Source: an uncultured Eubacteriales bacterium
GTDB lineage: Bacteria > Bacillota > Clostridia > Christensenellales > UBA1242
Direction of reading: 5' to 3'
DNA: 64,000 nt
Assembly: GCA_902496015.1 (NCBI GenBank)
Contig: CABUZJ010000004.1
Location: 4,257 to 68,256, forward strand
Position 1 is the stretch's first letter; each line of letters opens with the position of its first letter. This document shows, in pieces, positions 4,404 through 23,945 of this stretch. The notes beneath the pieces are model-generated. The model worked only from the letters and a program-made list of their open reading frames with translations, had not been told where the DNA came from and did not search any database. Made by a program: the position numbers and the translations under genes.

Positions 4404-5601
4404 TTATATTTCAAAATCATTTTCATATTGTTCTATCAAATTTTGGTATCTCAATTCTTCTAACTTATTATAAAATTCTTGAAATGTCTTTATTATCTCA
4501 TAATTAACCTTTTGACTGATATATAAACACTCTTGAATTTCGTTAAACAATTTTTTCTTTTGCTTTATTTTTTGTGCTTTATATTTTGCATTTAGTTTTA
4601 ATCTTTCATCATCTTTTGCTTTTAAATTTTTCGATTGCTCAATAACAACATTTCCAATTCTTCGGTAAAAATCTTGCATATATTTTTTCTCAAAATTAAA
4701 AGGTTGTTTAACGCGATTTCGCTTGCAATATGCTTCAAACTTTTCATCTTTCTCTTTTGCTAAATTTATAAAATCTTCCTTTAAAGTTTTTGCTTGATAG
4801 TCTTTTGACAAAATGTAATTTGTAATACTATCAATCTTAGGTTTTAGTGATTTCATATTCTCACAGTCATAATATGTGTGTCCAGTTTTTGGAAATTCGT
4901 TTGCAAGAGATAAAAGTTTATTCTTTAAAATATACCCAACACTTGTCATTAAACCTTTTAATTTTGTCATTTTGTCTTTTTCTTGCAAGTATTTCTCTTG
5001 CCTTAAAGTCTATTGCAGAAAGCTCAATATTTGCTTTTAACTCATTGATTTTATTTAATGATAGCTTGCCATTAGAGTATTGCTTTCCTTTTTTATTTGG
5101 GCGTATTCTTTGTGGACTATTTTCAAAAAATGAAATGTGAATATGTCTGTTATCTGTATTCTCGTGAAGTCCTGCAAACCAAGTTATATTATCTGGTTTT
5201 AGTCCAGCATTTTTAAAAAATTTTGGCAACTCACTTTTTATTAAATTGTATGCTTGCTCATAACTATCACACCAAGCCTTACCAAACTTTTCTTCAAAAC
5301 TTATAACCATATCCCAAATAACTGATTTTGTTTTTCTTAAAGCCTGCCTTATCTCTTTTCTTTCATCACTTGTTAAAAGTCCATTTTTACCAAATACTCC
5401 AGCACTTTTATCTTTGTTGTTCATATATGAAAGATAGTCAAATTTTTTCATGTCATTTATTCCAGTCAAAATGTAATTCATATAATCTTTATTTGTGTTA
5501 GATGAATAAAATTGCCTTTTGTTTTTATATTCTTTACTCCCATCATGAGAGTTGTAATAATGCAAAAATATATTCACATTAGGAACAATTCTATCTGCCA
5601 T
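4404..5601 (-). pseudogene. MOB relaxase (MobL-like; HENTDNRHIHISF histidine motif) split into two overlapping ORFs by a frameshift
   Basis: ORFs 4918-5601 and 4404-4988 overlap by 71 nt. Frames can be joined near an A5 run (plus-strand T run ~4977-4981), giving ...AREILARK|DKMTKLKGL... Confidence 0.65.
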
Positions 5602-6886: not shown

Positions 6887-7084
6887 TTTATCTTCCTTTA
6901 TTTAACTAGGTAGAACTTTGTTTTTTTGCAATCATCTCATTTACGAAAAAAGCCCAGTTTACCTATATGATACTTCTGGTCGGGTATCGATTTCGGTGCA
7001 CTAAGGCTCACTCAGAATTTATCTTTTGTTGGAACGATAAAGTTCGCTATGTAATGAAAATTAATACTCTTAACTTTCATTGCT

Positions 7085-7113
7085 ATTATAGAACAAATGT
7101 TTGGTAAATGCAA
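7085..7113 (-). promoter_or_regulatory. Sigma-70-type promoter TTGCAT-N17-TATAAT driving the 6886..4404 operon
   Basis: The reverse complement of 7108-7113 is TTGCAT and of 7085-7090 is TATAAT, with a 17-nt spacer. Confidence 0.6.
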
Positions 7114-7129
7114 GTAATATTTAATAACT

Positions 7130-8068
7130 TTATATTGCACACATAAGTTTTCCAAATTTATTCATCATATCAGTTTTATACGACATAAGCGAATGTGTAT
7201 ATCTTTGCAGTGTTATCATAGGGTTTTTGTGTCCAAGTATTTCGGAAACAGTTTTAACATCCATACCAAACTCTAAGGCGCGAGTTGCAAATGTGTGGCG
7301 AAGTGAATGGAAATTTTTATAAGGAATATTAAGTTTATTAAGTATTCTTTCAAATGTTCGTTGATATGACCTTGTTCCAACCATACCATTGTTTTTTGTT
7401 GTTATAACAAATTTTGATGTGGAGCTCTTTTTTATTTTCTTTAAAACTTCAACAAGTTGCTTTGGCAGTGGAATAACGCGGTTAGAATTCTTTGTTTTTG
7501 GTGTGTCAACAATAATAGTAATCTTATCATCTTTTTTGCCCTGAAAGGCAGATTTTGAAATAGTCATATAGTTTCGCGCAAAATCAATATCATCCCAAGT
7601 AAGTGCTAAAAGTTCTCCGATCCTTAGTCCCGTATACAAACAAATAACAATTCCAATGTAATTTGGTTTTTTGCTAGACAAACAAAACTTTTCAATTTTG
7701 TCCTGTTCACTTTTTTCAAAAGCACTAACTTTTGTTTCTTCTTGAATTGGCATTTTTATTTTCTTTGTTGAATTCTTGTTTGTCATTTCCAAAACATTTG
7801 CTTCTTCAATTGCTTGTTTTAATATGTTGGTCATAACAATAACAGTGTTGTTAGCCAACCCCTTGCCATTTTTCAAATTGCCCTTTTCCAACTTTTCTAG
7901 CACAAACTCTTGAAGAACCTGCGGTGTTAGATTTTCAAGTTCTAACTCGCCAAGTTTGGGTTTTATATGCTTTTCAATAAATTGTAAATAAGTGTTATAG
8001 GTCCTTATTTTAACCGTGTGCTTAACATATTTGTTCATCCAAGTGTCAAGCCAATCTTTTAATTTCAT
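7130..8068 (-). CDS. Tyrosine recombinase / phage-type integrase
   Basis: C-terminal catalytic region ...TGLRIGELLAL...HSLRHTFATRALEFGMDVKTVSEILGHKNPMITLQRYTH. Confidence 0.9.
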   Translation of the reverse strand: MKLKDWLDTWMNKYVKHTVKIRTYNTYLQFIEKHIKPKLGELELENLTPQVLQEFVLEKLEKGNLKNGKGLANNTVIVMTNILKQAIEEANVLEMTNKNSTKKIKMPIQEETKVSAFEKSEQDKIEKFCLSSKKPNYIGIVICLYTGLRIGELLALTWDDIDFARNYMTISKSAFQGKKDDKITIIVDTPKTKNSNRVIPLPKQLVEVLKKIKKSSTSKFVITTKNNGMVGTRSYQRTFERILNKLNIPYKNFHSLRHTFATRALEFGMDVKTVSEILGHKNPMITLQRYTHSLMSYKTDMMNKFGKLMCAI

Positions 8069-8203
8069 CTTTGTTTACCTCCTAAAATATTTTAATTGAT
8101 TTTTGCCCCCTCACATATATAAGGACATTTAAAAATCAAAAATTTAGGCAGTAAATGAAATATTTTCAATTTTTCTAAAAAATTTTTTAATTTTCATACA
8201 AAA

Positions 8204-8238
8204 AGACCACCTAATCTTGCAATCGGTGGTCTCTTTTG
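8204..8238. terminator. GC-rich hairpin AGACCACC..GGTGGTCT with flanking A/T runs (left boundary of the MTase cassette)
   Basis: Read directly. Similar in sequence to the hairpin at 11192-11226. Confidence 0.6.
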
Positions 8239-8427
8239 CTTTTAATATAAAACAATTATAACATACTTTTTCTAAAAATGTATAAGTTTTTACCATTTTC
8301 CCCAAAATAGATGTATCAAAAGAATAATATTAGTAAAAGTTGAAGTCATTTATTGCAAGAATAGATGACTTTTATTTTTTTATAAAGATACATCTTTTTT
8401 ACTGTAATGCGTGGTCAAGGAGAGATT

Positions 8428-9450
8428 ATGGCCACAAAATTAATGGATAATGCTAAAAGGAATAAAGCAGATGAATTTTACACTCAACTTAATGATATTG
8501 AATTAGAATTAAAACACTATAAAGATCAATTGAAAGATAAAGTAATATTTTGTAATTGTGATGATCCTTACGAAAGTAACTTTTTTAAATACTTTGCTAT
8601 GAATTTTAATCATTTAGGATTGAAAAAATTAATAGCAACTTGCTATGATGACTCTCCAATTGCTTATACACAATTTAATATTTGGGGAGAAAGCAAGACA
8701 ATACCAAATAAAAATAGACATCCTTATAAGATTGAAATAAATGAAGTTCAAGATTACAATCAAGATGGAGCAACAGATCTTGCTGATGTTGAATATCTTT
8801 TAAAAAACAAAAAGAACTATATGACTCTCTTAAAAGGTAATGGAGATTTTAGATCTGAAGAATGTATAGAATTATTAAAACAATCTGATATTGTTGTAAC
8901 AAATCCACCTTTTTCTTTGTTTAGAGAATATATTGAACAGCTAACAACTTTCAATAAAGATTACATTATTATGGGTAATACTAATGCTCTTACATATAAA
9001 GAAATTTTTAAACTATTTAAAGAAGATAAAATAAGAACGGGTTATACAAATTTTAATGTTGGAATGTATTTCGTTGTCCCAGATGATTGTGAGAAATTTC
9101 ATAAAATTGTTGATGGTAAAAAAATGGTTAGAGTTTCTACTTCTTGTTGGTTTACAAGTTTGCAAGTTTCAAAGCACAAAGAATTTATAACTCTATATAA
9201 AACTTATAATGAAAAAGAATATCCTAAATACGATAATTACAACGCAATAAATGTGAATAAATACAATGATATTCCCTATGATTATGATGGTTGTATGGGT
9301 GTTCCAATAACATTTTTAGATAAGTATAATCCTGAACAGTTTGAAATCGTTAAGTTTAGAAAAGGAAATGACGATAAAGATTTGTCAATAAACGGCCAAT
9401 ATCCATATTTTAGAGTCATAATTAAAAGGAGAAAAACGAATGAAAATTGA
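8428..9450 (+). CDS. N6-adenine DNA methyltransferase (EcoRI-methylase-like family)
   Basis: DIVVTNPPFSLF (NPPF motif IV) and an N-terminal DEFYT motif. Start moved to MATKL (ATG 8428) behind AAGGAG. Confidence 0.8.
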   Translation: MATKLMDNAKRNKADEFYTQLNDIELELKHYKDQLKDKVIFCNCDDPYESNFFKYFAMNFNHLGLKKLIATCYDDSPIAYTQFNIWGESKTIPNKNRHPYKIEINEVQDYNQDGATDLADVEYLLKNKKNYMTLLKGNGDFRSEECIELLKQSDIVVTNPPFSLFREYIEQLTTFNKDYIIMGNTNALTYKEIFKLFKEDKIRTGYTNFNVGMYFVVPDDCEKFHKIVDGKKMVRVSTSCWFTSLQVSKHKEFITLYKTYNEKEYPKYDNYNAINVNKYNDIPYDYDGCMGVPITFLDKYNPEQFEIVKFRKGNDDKDLSINGQYPYFRVIIKRRKTNEN

Positions 9451-10522
9451 GTTGAATGAAATTTCTATAAGAGAAGTAGCGGAAAATTATGTTGATAATG
9501 CAGAAGATGGTGTTGTTGGATATAATGGCAAATTAAATATTAGACCAAAATATCAAAGAGAATTTGTTTATGATGAAAAACAAAGAAATGCAGTTATTGA
9601 TACAATAAGAAAAGGTTTCCCACTTAATGTTATGTATTGGGTTAAAAATGAAGATGGAACATATGAAGTCTTAGACGGACAACAAAGAACAGTTAGTTTT
9701 TGTCAATATATAAACGGAGATTTTTCCATAGATAATCGTGCTTTTCACAATTTAACAAAAACAGAACAAGATTTAATTTTAGATTATAAATTAATGATTT
9801 ATTTTTGCGAAGGCAACGACAAAGAGAAATTAGATTGGTTTAAGATTATAAACATTGCTGGAGAAAAATTGACTGACCAAGAGTTAAGAAATGCAGTCTA
9901 TACTGGCCCATGGTTAACAAATGCAAAATTGCATTTTAGCAAAACAAATTGTGCCGCTTATCTTCTAGCAAAGGATTATGTTAATGGTTCACCTATAAGA
10001 CAAGAATATTTAGAAACGGCACTTTCGTGGATAAATAATGGCAATGTGGAAGAATATATGTCAATTCATCAACACGATCCTAATGCTAATGAGTTATGGA
10101 CTTATTTCAGAAATGTTATTGAATGGGTTAAACTAACATTTACAAATTATAGAAAAGAGATGAAAGGCATAAATTGGGGTGCTCTATATAATCAATTTAA
10201 AAATAATACCTACGATACTGACATATTAGAACAAGAAATACAAACACTTATGATAGACGATGATGTTACAAACAAAAAAGGTATATATTTTTATGTTCTC
10301 ACTCGTAATGAAAAGTATCTTAATATCCGTGCATTTACAGAAAATCAAAAAAGAAGTGCTTACGAAAAACAAAATGGAATATGTAAAAATTGCGGAAAGC
10401 ACTTTGATATAAAGGAAATGGAAGCTGATCACATAACTCCTTGGCATGCTGGAGGTAAAACTTCGGTTGACAATTGTCAAATGTTATGTAAAGATTGTAA
10501 TAGAAGAAAATCTGGAAAATAA
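9440..10522 (+). CDS. DUF262 (ParB/GmrSD-N-like) domain fused to a C-terminal HNH nuclease
   Basis: RPKYQREFVY...LDGQQRTVSF is the DUF262 signature. C-terminal CKNCGKHFDIKEMEADHITPWHAGGKTSVDNCQMLCKDCNRRK is an HNH motif. 11-nt overlap with the MTase. Confidence 0.85.
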   Translation: MKIELNEISIREVAENYVDNAEDGVVGYNGKLNIRPKYQREFVYDEKQRNAVIDTIRKGFPLNVMYWVKNEDGTYEVLDGQQRTVSFCQYINGDFSIDNRAFHNLTKTEQDLILDYKLMIYFCEGNDKEKLDWFKIINIAGEKLTDQELRNAVYTGPWLTNAKLHFSKTNCAAYLLAKDYVNGSPIRQEYLETALSWINNGNVEEYMSIHQHDPNANELWTYFRNVIEWVKLTFTNYRKEMKGINWGALYNQFKNNTYDTDILEQEIQTLMIDDDVTNKKGIYFYVLTRNEKYLNIRAFTENQKRSAYEKQNGICKNCGKHFDIKEMEADHITPWHAGGKTSVDNCQMLCKDCNRRKSGK

Positions 10523-10533
10523 AAGGAACAAAA

Positions 10534-11187
10534 ATGAACGAAAAGAAAAAATTGTTAATGCATAGATTGATTTGGTTGAGTTTAACTATACTTATAATAT
10601 TGTTACCAATTATTATTAATGCTTTTCAACCAAAATTAGAATTGATAGATAGTGAATGTTATGTAGACTATTATGAATCAATAGATACAACCAGTTGTGA
10701 TATTACATTATATTTTAATCGAGAAGTTAATAGTGGATATGCTACAATTAATTTTTATGATTCTAATAACAATTTAATTGACAGCATAGAAGAATATTTT
10801 TTTAGTGATGGAAAGGAAGCTTCAAATTTATACACTTCTATTGATGGCAATGTTGATTCTTACGAAATAGTAGCATACGACTTTGAAACCTATAGTGGTA
10901 TATATGGAATATACGGATTACTTATAATAGCTATTCCTATGTTAATTTCTGCACTTTTACTTTCATATAAAGAATGTAATTACAATGGGAAAACAATATC
11001 TGTTTATGCAGGATTTTATCATCATACTCTAAGAGTTGATGGAGAATTATGTGATGAACATAACACTCTTATATCTTTTACTTCAATAAAATTAAGTACA
11101 ACTGATAAAGATAATAGCAAAATTGAAGCTAATATTAGTTTAACCAATCGAATTGCTATCAAAGTTAACGATAAATTATGTAAATAA
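10534..11187 (+). CDS. Hypothetical two-TM membrane protein, third gene of the MTase/DUF262-HNH cassette
   Basis: Hydrophobic helices at ~aa 12-30 and ~117-135, an 11-nt gap after the HNH gene, AAAGGAA RBS, and a terminator immediately downstream. Confidence 0.6.
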   Translation: MNEKKKLLMHRLIWLSLTILIILLPIIINAFQPKLELIDSECYVDYYESIDTTSCDITLYFNREVNSGYATINFYDSNNNLIDSIEEYFFSDGKEASNLYTSIDGNVDSYEIVAYDFETYSGIYGIYGLLIIAIPMLISALLLSYKECNYNGKTISVYAGFYHHTLRVDGELCDEHNTLISFTSIKLSTTDKDNSKIEANISLTNRIAIKVNDKLCK

Positions 11188-11191
11188 AAAA

Positions 11192-11226
11192 AGACCATCT
11201 AATTTTATAATAGATGGTCTTTTTTC
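11192..11226 (+). terminator. Rho-independent terminator AGACCATCTA..TAGATGGTCT + T5
   Basis: Read directly. Confidence 0.8.
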
Positions 11227-11412
11227 TTCCCTTTTTAGTCTTTTTTATTAAATTTTAATGCCAAAACTATTTTAGTTTAGCCTTTATAATTATATTGATT
11301 GATAGTTTTAAATAGTATTTTTATAACCCTTTGCCACTTAATATAAAAATAGAAGTTAGTTATAATAAGTGGAAATACCATCTATTTTATTCCCTTTGTA
11401 TAGGGGAGTAAA

Positions 11413-11865
11413 ATGAACATATACAGAAATAAAATTGTTGCGTTTGCCGGTCATAGATATGAATGGCAATCAATAGGGATAGAAGAAAAACTTTTGCGAG
11501 TGTTAGAAGATTTAATCAATAAAGGTTATACAATATTTTATGACGGCAATTATGGTGCTTTTGACAATAAGTGCAGAAATGCAGTTTTGAAACTTAAAAA
11601 TAAATATCCACATATAAAACTTGTTTTAATTTTAACATATTATCATCACAACAAAGAAAAATATCCAATACCATCATATTACGATGAAACCATTTTACCA
11701 GAACTAGAAAATTTGCACTATAAACAAAAAATTACAAAACGAAACGAATGGATAATCGACAACTGTAACTTACTTGTCTGTCACGTCCAAGAAATTTACA
11801 AAAGTGGTGCTTATAACACTTTTAAATACGCCCAAAAGCAAAACAAACCAATTATTTATATTTAA
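11413..11865 (+). CDS. SLOG-superfamily protein (DUF1273 / YpsA-like)
   Basis: KIVAFAGHRYE...FYDGNYGAFD...KLVLILTYYHH...KRNEWIIDNCNLLVCHV...SGAYNTFKYAQKQNKPIIYI follows the DUF1273 layout. Confidence 0.7.
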   Translation: MNIYRNKIVAFAGHRYEWQSIGIEEKLLRVLEDLINKGYTIFYDGNYGAFDNKCRNAVLKLKNKYPHIKLVLILTYYHHNKEKYPIPSYYDETILPELENLHYKQKITKRNEWIIDNCNLLVCHVQEIYKSGAYNTFKYAQKQNKPIIYI

Positions 11866-11885
11866 TAAAAAATAAAGACCAGTTA

Positions 11886-13553
11886 TTAGTCTTCTTTTAT
11901 AGATTGATCTAGTCTCTTATATAAATGAGATAATAAACTTAATAAATCAAGGCAATCTTTTTCAGTAAACAATCCTGATTCTTTTAAATCAACATGTTCT
12001 TCGTGACTAATAATATTCCTTCCACCTTGGACAATACCTCTTGAAAGTGCTAATTGCCCCTCTTCAATATTGTTTAGTGTTGTTTCTGAGAAAGGTTGCC
12101 CATTAGGCCTTAGCTTAAAATTTGCTGTAGTTTTTAAAGGTTTATTATCTTTGCCAAACGATTTAGACATAATATCTAAATCTTCTGTTGCTGAAACTCC
12201 TGACTTTGCTTGTACTGCATTTTTATATCTTTTTAATGCTTCTTGAAATGCTGAGTAAAAATCTTTTTGTTGATAATGAATCTTTGAAGCATCTTGAACT
12301 TGATTATGTAATAATCTATAGTGGAAATAAGTATATGGTGGTATTAAGTCATAAACTTGATGTACGACAATTGAAAAATCTTCATCATCAATTTCTGGTT
12401 TTTCTGATATTTTGCTTATAATACTAGATAATCTAGGGCGAATATCATCGGGTACTGTAGCATACCATTTAGAAATATTTATCCCTGTTTTTTCAGTATT
12501 TGATTTTTCTTTTGCTTCTTTACGTTTTGCACTCCAATCACGGACTAAAAATCTAATCATCTTTTGCAAAAATTCTTGTAATTCTTGAGCTTCTGGCATA
12601 TCCCAGCTTAAAGATTGTCTATCCGTTGAAATTAAATCCTTATCAAATTCATCAAGATAATCAGCATCAATCCATCCAGTTAAATAAGAAAAGGTGTGCC
12701 CTGCCTCAGAAACACCAAAGAAACTAGGGACATTTGCTAATCGGCCATTTACATAAAGGGTAACACCTCTTAAGTCAGGCTTTATAGGCTTTTTAGATGA
12801 AATAATTTTTCCCTTTAATGTGTTTTTAAAAGAATATTCACATTCAATTGTTTCACATAAATCTACAACACTCCATTCAAACTCCTTATCAATACTTTCG
12901 TACTTTAATTCTCTTGTAAGTTCCAAAACCTCATCATCGTTTCTACTCATTACAACTTTGAATGTTTCATCAAAACAATTAAAAAGTTTTGATAACGATA
13001 TTGCTGTTGATGTTAAATCAAATTCACTAACCCTTGATAAGTGTGTTAGTTCAATTGTTGTTCCTTTCAGAGATAAATCTTCCTTACTAAGAATAGTACA
13101 TATTGGAAAATATTTGCCAGAAGTTTCTTGCAAAATACAATCCCAATCTAAAGAAAACTTTGTAAATGTGTCTTCATTTTCTTTAGTGGTTGTTATGGTT
13201 ATTGTTTTTCCAATTCCAAACAACGCTAATTTCCCAATACCTTTCTTACCTGTTATTTTTCGTCCCTTGGAATTATTTCTACTTTCATCTTCATCCCTAC
13301 GTCGTCTACCTATAACCAAAAAGTTATCTCTTACTTCCTCAAAAGACATCCCACATCCATTATCTGAAACAATTATTTTTTTATTATTTATATCTTTATC
13401 ATAAAGTTTTATTTCAACATGTTCTGCACCTGCATCATAGGCATTTGCGACTAATTCAGCTAATGCATATGGCAACTGAGAATACATTTTAATACCTAAA
13501 TGTTCAATTGTATGAGGATCAAATTTTAATTCAAGTTTATCATTAGTATCCAT
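11886..13553 (-). CDS. GHKL (HATPase_c_3 / paraMORC-like) ATPase with a C-terminal TIGR02391 (Abi_C-like) domain
   Basis: ELVANAYDAGA (N box), SDNGCGMS (G1), GKKGIGKLALFG (G2). C-terminal ...FQEALKRYKNAV...LSRGIVQGGRNIISHEEH...LLSLLSHLYKRLD. Confidence 0.75.
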   Translation of the reverse strand: MDTNDKLELKFDPHTIEHLGIKMYSQLPYALAELVANAYDAGAEHVEIKLYDKDINNKKIIVSDNGCGMSFEEVRDNFLVIGRRRRDEDESRNNSKGRKITGKKGIGKLALFGIGKTITITTTKENEDTFTKFSLDWDCILQETSGKYFPICTILSKEDLSLKGTTIELTHLSRVSEFDLTSTAISLSKLFNCFDETFKVVMSRNDDEVLELTRELKYESIDKEFEWSVVDLCETIECEYSFKNTLKGKIISSKKPIKPDLRGVTLYVNGRLANVPSFFGVSEAGHTFSYLTGWIDADYLDEFDKDLISTDRQSLSWDMPEAQELQEFLQKMIRFLVRDWSAKRKEAKEKSNTEKTGINISKWYATVPDDIRPRLSSIISKISEKPEIDDEDFSIVVHQVYDLIPPYTYFHYRLLHNQVQDASKIHYQQKDFYSAFQEALKRYKNAVQAKSGVSATEDLDIMSKSFGKDNKPLKTTANFKLRPNGQPFSETTLNNIEEGQLALSRGIVQGGRNIISHEEHVDLKESGLFTEKDCLDLLSLLSHLYKRLDQSIKED

Positions 13554-13563
13554 GTTATACTCC

Positions 13564-14613
13564 TTAGATTTTATAATATTTTAAAATACTTCTTCCTATT
13601 ATTTCTCCCAATTTAACCGGAACTGCATTGCCAATTTCTCTTGCTACATCTTTTAATGAAAAGTCTTTACCTGGCTCTGTAAACTGATAATTTTGTGGAA
13701 AAGTTTGTATTAATGCTCCTTCTCGAAGAGTTAGTGCTCTATTTTGTTCGGGATGTCCATATCTGCCTGTACCATAACAATAAAATTGTGTCGTCATTGT
13801 TGGAGATATTTTATCCCATTCCATTCTTCCATACACAGAAGTATAAGTTTGACCGCTATCTTTTTGATGACATTTACATCTTAATTCTTTAGGCCAATCT
13901 TTCCAAGTCCCACCGGGTTTTGATAATTTTATTCTTTCTAAATTAATATCTGATAACTTTGCTGTTTGGTGAAGAATGTCTGTTGGACAAATTTCCCCAC
14001 TTTCAACAGCTGGTAAGTGACCAATTGTTTGTCTTACAGTAACGTAACTATCTTTTGAATGAGTTTTATCCAATAATTTAATCTCACCTTTTTTAGAAGC
14101 TAATAGTAAAAATCGTCTTCTATTTTGTGGTATTCCATAATCTGGGCAATAAACAACTTTGTAATCTACATTATATCCAGATTCTTCAAGAATTGCTAAA
14201 AATTCTTTGAATACATATGTATCACGAATTTTAGGTACATTCTCCATAGAAACTATGTCAGGTTTTACACTTTTAACCAAACGGCCAAATTCTAACAGCA
14301 AATCATATCTTTTATCATTTTCTCGTTTTTTATTTTCATCACTTTGATATTTAAAACTCATTTGCGAAAATGGTTGACAAGGTGCACATCCTGCCAAAAC
14401 CTTTATTGCATTGGGGGAGTAACATTTATTTATATCTTCAGCTGAAACATTTCTAATGTCTTTTTCAATAAATTTTGCGTTGTTATTAAATTCATAAGGA
14501 TATTTACAAGTTTTATCTATATCAAAACCAGCTTTTACTTTAAGCCCACTTTGTATTAATCCGCAGGTTAACCCTCCGACCCCACAGAACAAATCTACTA
14601 CTTCTATTTTCAT
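13564..14613 (-). CDS. dcm: DNA (cytosine-5) methyltransferase
   Basis: DLFCGVGG (I), APCQPFS (IV), ENVP (VI), QNRRR (VIII), GNAVP (X). Confidence 0.9.
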   Translation of the reverse strand: MKIEVVDLFCGVGGLTCGLIQSGLKVKAGFDIDKTCKYPYEFNNNAKFIEKDIRNVSAEDINKCYSPNAIKVLAGCAPCQPFSQMSFKYQSDENKKRENDKRYDLLLEFGRLVKSVKPDIVSMENVPKIRDTYVFKEFLAILEESGYNVDYKVVYCPDYGIPQNRRRFLLLASKKGEIKLLDKTHSKDSYVTVRQTIGHLPAVESGEICPTDILHQTAKLSDINLERIKLSKPGGTWKDWPKELRCKCHQKDSGQTYTSVYGRMEWDKISPTMTTQFYCYGTGRYGHPEQNRALTLREGALIQTFPQNYQFTEPGKDFSLKDVAREIGNAVPVKLGEIIGRSILKYYKI

Positions 14614-14717
14614 AAATTTTCTCCATTTTCATTATAACATATTTTATGTATTATTTTTATTTTTTTAATAATTTTATTAAATTTTTAATAATTTTAATCC
14701 TGATTAATAAACATTTA

Positions 14718-15818
14718 CTAACTTATTACCTGTAATATTTTATTAATTATTGAATTGCAAAGGGTAATTGATAGTTTTAATTGTTTTCCGATGTTTAGCA
14801 AGTCTTCTTTTGTTGGGTTGGCATTTCCGTTGACGGTCATTTCGTGTTCTAACTTGCTTGGTGTTTTTGTTAAGTCGTATGCTGGGGACAAAACATAGCC
14901 TTTTTTATCTTCATCATATAAGAAAGAAAAGTTCTTGCCGTGATCGTCTTTGTTGCCATACAAAACATTAAAACACATTCTTTTATACGCCTCTATAATA
15001 TCGTTTTTATCTACACAAATATTTTGTATTACTTGAAACAAGTGCATATAATCTAAATTTGGTATTCTATGGGTTGTTTCAAGTAGAGATGATAAAGATA
15101 TCATATGAACTCGTTTGCCGTCCTTTCTATCAAATCTTTTAGCTCCAAAATAACCTGAACATATTTTAGATTTAAACAACTTAAATTCATTAACATTTAT
15201 ACCACATTCTTCTGCTAGTGTATTTGCTTTGTATTCTTGTTCTCCAATATTTTTAGGGTCAATAATGCAAGGGAATTTAACAATCCAATAGTCTTTATCT
15301 ATCTTTATATGTGCTTTTGGTCTAGCACCACCAGAACTTCCACCAAGGTTGTAGATTTTATCTAAATCAATATCTATAATTTCATCTTCTAGTACCTGTT
15401 GTGCTTCTTTTGCGATTTCATCTAAATCAAATTCTATTTCACTTTCTTCTTGTGTCTGGCAAGGTTCATATGAAAGTCCACCAAGACCATTTCCACTAAC
15501 AAGGGTTAGTTTTGTAAGTGGAGATATTTTATTAGGATTTATTCCTTTTTTAGATAACATTCTATTTAATAATAGTTCACCCCAACCATCTGGCAAACTA
15601 TCTTGAAAAACACCATACAATCCATTAAAAGTTAGTTTTTCATTTATATATACTTTATTTGAAAGTGGCAAAGAAAATGGAGAAATGGAAAATCCTGTTT
15701 TAATCCATTCCTCGTCATACTGAAAACCTATTTTATTATCTTCAAGTTCTGCTAAATAACCAACGATTGTGCTATTATATTTTACTACTAGTTTCTTAAC
15801 ATTTTGAATTTTCATCAT
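14718..15818 (-). CDS. hipA: HipA-family serine/threonine kinase toxin
   Basis: GGSSGGARPKA and DDHGKNFSF catalytic motifs. ATGA overlap with the upstream HTH gene. Confidence 0.85.
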   Translation of the reverse strand: MMKIQNVKKLVVKYNSTIVGYLAELEDNKIGFQYDEEWIKTGFSISPFSLPLSNKVYINEKLTFNGLYGVFQDSLPDGWGELLLNRMLSKKGINPNKISPLTKLTLVSGNGLGGLSYEPCQTQEESEIEFDLDEIAKEAQQVLEDEIIDIDLDKIYNLGGSSGGARPKAHIKIDKDYWIVKFPCIIDPKNIGEQEYKANTLAEECGINVNEFKLFKSKICSGYFGAKRFDRKDGKRVHMISLSSLLETTHRIPNLDYMHLFQVIQNICVDKNDIIEAYKRMCFNVLYGNKDDHGKNFSFLYDEDKKGYVLSPAYDLTKTPSKLEHEMTVNGNANPTKEDLLNIGKQLKLSITLCNSIINKILQVIS

Positions 15819-17039: not shown

Positions 17040-17277
17040 ATAATATACTCCTTAATTTTTAATTTAATTTATTGTCTATTATTTGTGCGTCCGTAAACTT
17101 TTTAGACAATAAATCTTAAAAATAAAGAATGTATTATCTATACATTGGCTGGACATTATCCTTTCCACGGACGGGTAGGCTTGCCAATAAGCACATTAAT
17201 ATAATAACTAATTGTAGTTAAAAAGTCAATAATTTTACTAACATCACTTGAATCAGATTAGAAAGTAAGTTCCTAAC

Positions 17278-17465
17278 TTACATAGTTTTAGGCAGTTTTA
17301 AATCACTTGATTTTATTAAAAATATAGTCGTAGGTGTATGTAGGTGCACAAGTTTTAAAAATTTTTGCACCTATTACAAAAAATACTAGCGTTTTTGCTA
17401 GTATTTATAAGGGGTTTATTAGCATAGAGCACAAGTTTTGATAAAAATATTTTTAAATTGGTAAG
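17278..17465 (+). repeat. Copy 2 of the ~188-bp repeat R, ending in TTGGTAAG
   Basis: See 495-682. Confidence 0.85.
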
Positions 17466-17502
17466 GTGTAGGTCGCAAATACGATTCCCGCTATCAGCTC
17501 CA
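17458..17502 (+). pseudogene. Orphan, decayed tRNA-Thr 3' half (anticodon loop to CCA)
   Basis: TTGGTAA-GGTGT-AGGTC-GCAAA-TACGATT-CCCGC-TATCAGC-T-CCA. The T-stem 5' strand is GCAAA where GCGGG would be needed, so it no longer folds. Confidence 0.7.
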
Positions 17503-23752: not shown

Positions 23753-23850
23753 TTTTTAATTTTATATAATTATAAGTTAATCATTGTATAATTTAAAGTT
23801 AATTTTAACATATTTTTTTATTTTTAATAATATTAAAAATGAATATATAA

Positions 23851-23945
23851 AAATTTAAACATATTTACAAATTTCTAGGCAATTTTGAACCACTTAATTT
23901 TATTAAAAATATTTGACTTGGTTTATGTATGTTTACAATTTTGTG
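23851..23945 (+). repeat. Partial copy (5' ~95 nt) of repeat family R abutting the stop of the epimerase gene
   Basis: AAATTTAAACATATTTACA..TAGGCAATTTTGAACCACTTAATTTTATTAAAAATAT aligns with 481-575. Confidence 0.7.

Follow-up and report, generated by a model that had tools for sequence, protein, structure and literature searches.

The locus examined here raises the question of what a tightly packed group of three genes between two similar hairpins amounts to. It lies in a 64,000-nucleotide (nt) stretch of contig CABUZJ010000004.1 from an uncultured Eubacteriales bacterium (assembly GCA_902496015.1; the whole stretch is hereafter called the window), and comprises an N6-adenine DNA methylase gene of the EcoRI family, a gene for a DUF262-HNH nuclease and a gene for a 217-amino-acid (aa) two-pass membrane protein, all on one strand. 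A sequence-only reading had suggested that the three could be one unit, a hybrid of restriction-modification (R-M) and abortive infection, flanked by the hairpins as if it had moved as a cassette. The answer that we consider probable is a different one, namely that the locus is a phase-variable, swappable R-M slot, in which a promoterless type II operon stands behind a recombinase-operated invertible promoter on an integrative mobilizable island of a low-GC Clostridia genome. Direct observation covers the genes present, the inverted repeats, the occurrence of the segment in both orientations in three sibling lineages, the lack of linkage of the 217-aa gene and the variation of the cargo. In the proposed mechanism, the N6-methyladenine methylase and the translationally coupled nuclease after it would form a promoterless operon in an expression slot, and the neighbouring tyrosine recombinase would invert a 128-nt segment between the left and right inverted repeats (IR-L and IR-R; Table 1). 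In the ON orientation, an extended -10 promoter would read methylase and nuclease, and transcription would end at hairpin 2; in the OFF orientation, which is that of the window, a leftward transcript would be halted at once by hairpin 1 and its U-run. Hairpin 1 would form in the OFF orientation only, from one flanking and one internal arm, and the population would hedge its bets between restricting and non-restricting states.

Both orientations are seen in sibling lineages. In an 85%-identical sibling lineage, the 363-nt intergenic region between recombinase and methylase occurs in two forms from different samples (L031/L036 versus L032/L034; loci are cited by their L numbers), which are 100% identical except that positions 148-301 are inverted, the inversion being bounded by 11-nt perfect inverted repeats. 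The inverted segment is 98.6% identical over 141 nt between L137/L147 and L146, and 93% identical over 165 nt between L148 and L150; the three lineage pairs come from different samples and carry different cargo. Sibling lineages have 11-15-nt perfect inverted repeats at positions matching those of the window; measured from the start of the recombinase, the two repeats lie at about 143 nt and about 285 nt in every lineage. The repeat sequences vary among lineages and agree within each pair, and a one-position change is found in both arms between L054 and L055 as well as between the window and L021/L029, the latter two carrying the matched change as CTTACAAT / ATTGTAAG. Within the segment, a TGnTAnAAT element holds a constant position, and the way it points agrees with the orientation of the segment in all scored loci. 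Where this promoter points toward the recombinase in the sibling lineages, hairpin 1 is intact; where it points toward the cargo, the internal arm is found at the far end. Scored by state, about 25 contigs are OFF and 8 are ON.

In the window itself, a promoter scan of the minus strand predicted a -35 element (TATACA, 8284-8279) and a TGt-TATAAT element with a TG extension and its -10 at 8260-8255. This predicted promoter points left, toward the recombinase and straight into hairpin 1, which corresponds to the OFF state. Two contigs of the window's own lineage are cut at the edges of the repeats: L168, with an identical recombinase, ends exactly at 8223, and L030 starts exactly at 8352. Since assemblers break at such points, these ends are an indirect sign that both orientations exist in this lineage too. 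The promoter is predicted to be active, and the window's own copy of the switch presumably still flips.

Several points weigh against this interpretation. No ON contig of the window's own lineage was found, with 10 of 10 switch-spanning contigs being OFF; exact look-ups of the window recombinase and methylase returned OFF-state or truncated contigs only, and neither switch junction was found in the viral contigs that were scanned. The window repeats are imperfect, matching at 12 of 13 positions, and the promoter is a prediction from consensus match only. The nearest solved relative of the recombinase is Tn1549 Int (3e-17), a transposon integrase and no known invertase. A second, constitutive promoter may lie within 8365-8427. 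Furthermore, turning a whole type II system ON and OFF risks self-restriction, against which gene order and translational coupling are the only safeguards evident. For the nuclease, no biochemical characterisation was found, and its NCBI name is only 'DUF262 domain-containing protein'.

A separate observation concerns the methylase of the P0077 lineage (L031-L038; e.g. L031:3895-5011), whose open reading frame (ORF) is broken in all contigs checked by a frameshift within a run of eight T (T8), the window having T6 there. The frameshift also occurs in ON-state contigs, and the nuclease is intact. Either the run could act as another switch, of the slippage type, or the methylase could be dead and tolerated via the translational coupling of the nuclease.

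Table 1. Coordinates of the features of the R-M slot in the window
Feature	Position	Strand	Description
Tyrosine recombinase, putative invertase	7130-8068	-	312 aa; Pfam Phage_integrase 6.6e-31 and Phage_int_SAM_3
Hairpin 1	8199-8238	.	left arm 8199-8211 outside the invertible segment; loop = IR-L; right arm 8225-8238 inside
IR-L	8211-8223	+	CTAATCTTGCAAT; 12/13 complementary to IR-R
Invertible segment	8224-8351	-	128 nt (~150 bp with repeats); predicted extended -10 promoter on minus strand
IR-R	8352-8364	+	ATTGCAAGAATAG
Further copies of motif AAAG-N(1-3)-CAYCTWWT	8360-8372; 8384-8398	-; +	operon 5' leader
Methylase ORF	8407-9450	+	347 aa; N6-adenine DNA methyltransferase, EcoRI family
DUF262-HNH nuclease	9440-10522	+	360 aa; DUF262 (ParB/Srx-like, DGQQR) and HNH; predicted restriction component
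Putative passenger insert (ribosome-binding site and 217-aa two-pass membrane protein gene)	10523-11187	+	ORF 10534-11187
Hairpin 2	11188-11226	.	two inverted motif copies around a ~9-nt spacer
YpsA/SLOG-like gene, conserved right-hand frame of the slot	11413-11865	+	150 aa; weak Pfam YpsA match (7e-5), under the curated cut-off

The two hairpins that had first drawn attention to the locus are both present and alike, with an ungapped count of 31 matching positions out of 38. Hairpin 1 folds with -15.2 kcal/mol on the plus strand and -19.2 kcal/mol on the minus strand (z about -5.5), and hairpin 2 with -17.6 and -20.1 kcal/mol (z -5.5 and -6.0); over both hairpins and both strands, z ranges from -5.4 to -6.0, and 0 of 200 shuffles were as stable. 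The sequence AAAAAGACCAyCTAAT occurs exactly at only two places in the window, 8200 and 11188; with up to two mismatches, a third site is reached in the inverted arm of hairpin 2 (11209-11224), the expected number being 0.44 and none of 100 shuffles reaching three. On the minus strand, hairpin 1 begins ~10 nt past the predicted transcription start and is followed by UUUUUGUAU. A simple terminator scan of 7000-15000 gave no sites, the loops of both hairpins exceeding its 8-nt limit, and an Rfam scan of the window recovered three tRNAs and no other known RNA family. A homologous hairpin 2 with compensatory stem changes stands right after the last cassette gene in L031, L047, L051, L054, L138, L140 and L145, and among the nuclease loci hairpin 2 was seen only where the recombinase is present or where the contig is too short to judge. 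By its fold and place, hairpin 2 is a predicted bidirectional intrinsic terminator of the operon. Hairpin 1, in turn, is best read as a recombination site and as the OFF-state terminator of the invertible promoter, and not as a transposon-type end of a cassette. Direct-repeat ends of a mobile unit were also considered for the pair of hairpins and rejected, because homology to close relatives runs unbroken through both. The idea of a cassette therefore survives in part: the DNA between the hairpins does differ among sibling elements, with homology resuming at hairpin 2, but the unit is the cargo of an expression slot and no three-gene system.

Two variants of hairpin 2 were observed in addition. 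In L022-L024, a ~50-nt deletion between short AATTTT repeats removes half of it (equivalent to 11203-11255 of the window), so that the 217-aa gene and the YpsA-like gene are no longer separated by a terminator. In L055 (7084-7110), hairpin 2 is broken inside its spacer: beyond the left half comes unrelated DNA that is richer in GC, and no right half occurs within 6 kb.

All of the above evidence comes from metagenome assemblies, and an A-run, a GC-rich stem and a T-run are common among terminators; the two orientations could thus be assembly artefacts, and the hairpins ordinary terminators unrelated to each other. We regard this as hardly credible. The flips begin and end exactly at the repeats and were met in three lineages, in several samples and with several assemblers, hairpin 1 sits between two divergently transcribed genes (recombinase and methylase) at a site where no gene needs a terminator, and the 11-14-nt repeats are shorter than usual assembly k-mers, so that a flip made by the assembler would not be expected.

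The recombinase gene adjoins the invertible segment in every lineage examined, and the catalytic residues of its product, R149, K191/K193, H254, R257, H280 and Y290, are invariant in five lineages, which is consistent with its predicted role as the invertase of the switch. Its relation to the Tn1549 integrase, its Pfam Phage_integrase domain and its location in a mobile island would equally suit an integrase of the element or of a sub-element, with hairpin 1 as its attachment site and the inversions as by-products or neutral. This alternative is improbable in our view. The island, which begins at a tRNA-Thr gene and bears a large serine recombinase and a split MobL relaxase, already holds a serine integrase of its own, so the tyrosine recombinase need not be the integrase and is free to act as an invertase; the homology of relatives extends on both sides of its gene, which is therefore not at the end of an element. 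Moreover, repeat positions, spacing and the internal promoter are conserved across lineages although their recombinases are only about 61-65% identical, which argues for selection on the switch itself.

The operon that the switch would control was also compared with known R-M systems. The methylase matches Pfam EcoRI_methylase (PF13651, 2.1e-128) and shows the NPPF catalytic motif in its translation; its start is more likely ATG 8428, which has the ribosome-binding site AAGGAGAG ahead of it and would give a product of 340 aa, as called in L024, L167 and L169. The nuclease, whose ORF start overlaps the methylase end by 11 nt, matches GmrSD_N (DUF262, PF03235; 2.8e-20, residues 34-154), contains DGQQR and ends in an HNH domain (PF01844, 1.6e-14). 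The sequence-only reading had described the three same-strand ORFs, the 11-nt overlap, the 11-nt gap ahead of the 217-aa ORF and the domains of the two enzymes correctly, and the coordinates and Pfam profile searches bear it out. It had, however, held this not to be a standard R-M layout, and for the pair that view is not supported by comparison with PADLOC: the methylase matches MTase_II PDLC03297 over its full length (1.5e-117), the nuclease matches REase_II PDLC03418 with residues 1-360 on a 372-position model (7.5e-141), and in full-length match, gene order and adjacency the window pair is the same as this family, with no structural difference.

The same pair is widespread. Homologues of the nuclease number more than 8000; taking one genome per species and the best 80 loci, the nucleases are 72-98% identical to that of the window, and their hosts belong to Bacillota, Chloroflexota, Saccharibacteria, Lentisphaerota, Planctomycetota and others. 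A methylase homologue lies immediately upstream of the nuclease in 77 of the 80 loci, the contigs of the remaining three being cut there. Many plasmids bear the same pair, for which their annotation gives no more than 'DUF262 domain-containing protein' and 'adenine-specific methyltransferase EcoRI family protein'; RefSeq, too, uses these two names for the family. Judging from profile matches and gene order, methylase and nuclease are thus a widespread, already catalogued two-gene type II module that is ordinary in itself, and the nuclease would presumably be blocked by the cognate methylation.

In its general plan, described previously (PMC4619093, PMC12707154), the nuclease resembles the type IV enzymes GmrSD, BrxU and SspE: DUF262 with DGQQR stands at the N-terminus, and a nuclease of the His-Me finger type at the C-terminus. 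However, it has 360 aa where those enzymes have ~600, and its C-terminal domain is a classical HNH (PF01844) with no DUF1524 match at E<=0.01, whereas theirs is DUF1524. The type IV enzymes are modification-dependent and stand alone without a cognate methylase, whereas an EcoRI-family methylase gene precedes the nuclease of the window type wherever the contig reaches that far, and the PADLOC type IV models reach only the HNH part of the window nuclease (9e-6). The missing DUF1524, the half length and the constant presence of a cognate methylase speak against a GmrSD-type enzyme. NCBIfam holds no model for either protein; a search of the PDB gave distant HNH domains only for the nuclease and nothing for the methylase, and the papers searched on DUF262 with HNH or on PF13651 yielded no characterised member and no recognition sequence. 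Palindrome avoidance in the window was uninformative on the recognition site: GAATTC was observed 13 times against 19 expected, and the avoidance of 4-mers is general (GATC, CATG and others), with nothing for GAATTC, CAATTG or AATT.

As an observation on the evolution of the pair, amino-acid identity to the window (8407-10522) across phyla (L047-L126) is 72-98% for the nuclease and 44-97% for the methylase, and L050 combines a nuclease 97% identical to that of the window with a methylase of only 57%. In R-M pairs, it is usually not the nuclease but the methylase that is conserved better, so the pair runs counter to the rule.

The third gene behaves differently. Its two transmembrane helices, named in the sequence-only reading, are supported by hydrophobic segments at about residues 12-31 and 123-145 and by an AlphaFold model (predicted local distance difference test (pLDDT) score 92.9) with the order transmembrane helix, beta-sandwich, transmembrane helix, beta domain. 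No family of Pfam, PADLOC or NCBIfam matches the protein, and a fold search of the PDB gave generic beta-sandwich matches only, none at E <= 1e-3. The family has 59 matches, in Clostridia only. A three-component defence system of methylase, DUF262-HNH nuclease and two-pass membrane protein could be read from the tight packing on one strand and from the fact that the three genes are found together in close relatives (L021-L030, L048, L049, L053 and L107). All of this co-occurrence, however, falls within one lineage with 98% identical nucleases: the 217-aa gene is present in 4 of the 80 nuclease loci and missing from the other 76, and its position is empty in L031-L038, L051/L052 and L056 and is taken by a different ORF of ~300 aa in L054. 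L047, which is the same element of the same lineage with a 98% identical nuclease, has no 217-aa gene; there hairpin 2 comes straight after the stop codon of the nuclease, and the sequence further downstream is identical, giving a precise junction. In addition, homology to close relatives passes straight through both hairpins, which would be the bounds of such a unit.

Outside this lineage, homologues of 52-78% identity were all at other sites in the nine contexts examined. Most adjoin a divergent XRE-type gene in housekeeping neighbourhoods (leuS/uvrB, serS, tyrS, rplI), and the closest (78%) lie between leuS and uvrB with the XRE gene alongside. Chromosomal copies in L014-L018 have 82% nucleotide identity to the window over the ORF and its ribosome-binding site only (10522-11187). 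On this comparison, the 217-aa gene is a passenger, apparently a captured chromosomal gene that was inserted between the nuclease stop codon and hairpin 2. Since the gene is unlinked to the nuclease, an abortive-infection or membrane-effector system that includes its product is not supported, and the three-gene functional unit is, in our judgement, very improbable. The one set of homologues that might speak for a defence role is P0156 (52-54% identical), which occurs in defence-rich mobile regions after a conserved 328-aa ORF. In L008-L013, P0156 always follows this ORF; the pair lies in serine-recombinase elements, has defence genes as neighbours (Hachiman-like, Shedu-like and R-M), and may be a two-gene module of its own. 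For annotation, the case is a warning that a gene tightly packed in a defence operon can be a recent passenger.

The variation behind the switch is not restricted to this passenger. A scan with the recombinase alignment found frames with other cargo: sibling elements keep the recombinase, the switch and hairpin-1 region, hairpin 2 and the YpsA-like gene, which comes after hairpin 2 in sibling lineages as it does in that of the window, while the R-M operon between them differs. The cargo may be an N6_N4 methylase with a ResIII helicase, an Eco57I/N6_Mtase protein with a 244-aa protein, a C5 methylase with a NOV_C protein, a 700-aa NPPF protein, Eco57I-type methylases, or a distant pair of EcoRI methylase and DUF262-HNH nuclease. 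Between frames that are 93-94% identical, the left end of homology varies, falling at IR-L, just past IR-R or at the start codon; between the window and L127, which has the same frame and other cargo, it falls at about 8377. On the right, homology resumes exactly at the left edge of hairpin 2 in two pairs with hairpin 2 in both elements, whereas in L146, which has no hairpin 2, it resumes within the YpsA region. In close relatives, homology to the window stops at 11868-11905, close behind the YpsA-like gene.

The motif AAAG-N(1-3)-CAYCTWWT offers a possible link between switch and slot. Of its six copies in the window, five belong to this locus: one on the outer flank of each inverted repeat, IR-L and IR-R, one in the leader and one in each arm of hairpin 2. 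The same relative positions are held in L047, L138 and L145; the pattern was defined after these sites had been seen. The motif may be bound by the recombinase, and hairpin 2 would then be a full recombination site. As a partner of hairpin 1, hairpin 2 was judged unlikely, given the lack of covariation between its spacer and the switch cores; L140 and L145 have a common hairpin 2 and different inverted repeats. Site-specific cassette exchange is possible but unproven. As a tentative extension, which we find conceivable and would not yet lean on, recombinase, flip-switch and hairpin-2 frame could be a portable phase-variable dock: promoterless R-M operons (type II, type III-like and others) would be swapped between the switch and a lox-like hairpin, with one tyrosine recombinase flipping the promoter and exchanging cassettes at the AAAG..CAYCTWWT sites. 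If true, mobilizable islands of gut Clostridia would carry a platform that resembles an integron and has an ON/OFF switch of its own.

Taken as a full alternative to a switch with a merely variable cargo, an integron-like dock would have both hairpins and the motif copies as recombinase sites, at which the recombinase also excises, captures and exchanges whole cassettes besides flipping the promoter. The placement of the motif copies and its conservation in other lineages are in its favour, as are the shape of hairpin 2, with two inverted arms and a spacer like a full recombination site, its restriction to recombinase-bearing loci or contigs too short to judge, and the cargo breakpoints, which fall exactly at hairpin 2 on the right and in one case at IR-L on the left; L055 is broken inside the hairpin-2 spacer, and the cassettes are promoterless and replaced from start codon to stop codon. 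Against it, the motif was drawn post hoc from sites already seen, the missing covariation makes recombination of hairpin 1 with hairpin 2 unlikely, the left breakpoints differ between pairs as ordinary homologous recombination in conserved flanks predicts, no empty site, excision product or free circle junction was seen, and the recombinase scores 58.8 bits against the 265-bit cut-off for integron integrases (TIGR02249). We therefore hold an integron-like dock to be rather unlikely and retain the phase-variable slot. Like integrons, this slot has a divergent tyrosine recombinase gene, a platform promoter, promoterless interchangeable cargo and a hairpin at the end of the cargo; unlike them, it has no IntI-type integrase, forms a single slot and no array, and the reaction demonstrated (in sibling lineages) is inversion.

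Invertible promoters are familiar from E. coli fimS with FimB/FimE, from the RecV-controlled switches of C. difficile and from Bacteroides. The window's switch shares with these invertons a short, repeat-bounded segment, here with a predicted promoter, beside a tyrosine recombinase gene and the existence of two orientations, seen here in sibling lineages. It differs from them in that its cargo is a whole R-M operon on a mobilizable island, in that its OFF state would build a terminator hairpin from one flanking and one internal arm, and in that the cargo behind it varies among homologous elements; in addition, it is known from sequence alone. Phase-variable R-M systems are likewise established, type III mod genes switching by slippage in repeat tracts. 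Type I systems vary through hsdS shufflons (S. pneumoniae; B. fragilis, PMC7641763; survey, PMC7672463), and the R-M classes listed as phase-variable in a 2025 review are type I and type III (PMC11868660). A survey of 'epigenetic phase variation' (PMC11741434) lists invertons that lie no more than 2 kb away from systems of type I, II and III, and the architecture of the window's switch was not found described there. Common to the known systems and to the present one is recombinase- or slippage-driven switching of R-M activity within a clone; the known systems rearrange specificity genes or shift frames, whereas here a promoter flip would toggle a complete type II operon. Neither invertons nor phase-variable R-M systems are new in themselves, and the control of whole type II operons by promoter flipping in a mobile, cargo-swapping frame is not described as far as the searched literature shows.

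Further features of the island were recorded beside the slot. The split MobL relaxase (4404-5601, minus strand) consists of two overlapping ORFs of 194 and 227 aa, and L021 has an intact 399-aa MobL; the split is probably a frameshift, owing to which the island may have lost its capacity for mobilization. At 465-682, a ~190-nt direct repeat (copies 94% identical) lies upstream of the tRNA-Thr gene (845-919) and again at 17248-17465, 16.8 kb away, where it is followed by an apparent 3' tRNA remnant (ACGATTCCCGCTATCAGCTCCA, about 17470-17502); a third, partial copy lies at 23835-23942. The repeats probably mark where islands arranged in tandem at the tRNA locus end. A second R-M pair (11886-14613, minus strand), made up of a HATPase_c_3 and Hypoth_Ymh protein with a C5 cytosine methylase, occupies another variable slot, which has the YpsA-like gene on one side and hipA on the other; the former protein is distantly BbrUII/HgiDII-like (213 bits, below the 550-bit cut-off). 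In close relatives, this second slot holds AAA_13, Gabija-like UvrD and OLD, RloB and AAA_21, or MmeI-like and Fic genes. Just beyond it, a HipA-family kinase toxin gene (14718-15818, minus strand) is kept in several relatives, with a small helix-turn-helix gene beside hipA in L021.

It has been suggested that recombinases adjoining defence genes may regulate them by inversion (PMC13552941), and the switch described here bears on that idea. It is a concrete, sequence-defined switch on a mobile element, and related elements carry different R-M systems at its cargo position. The switch also raises a problem, namely how a cell would survive when a restriction enzyme is switched on over an unmethylated genome. 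At the same time, recombinase, repeat spacing and hairpin 2 together provide a search handle for more phase-variable defence cargo in gut Clostridia.

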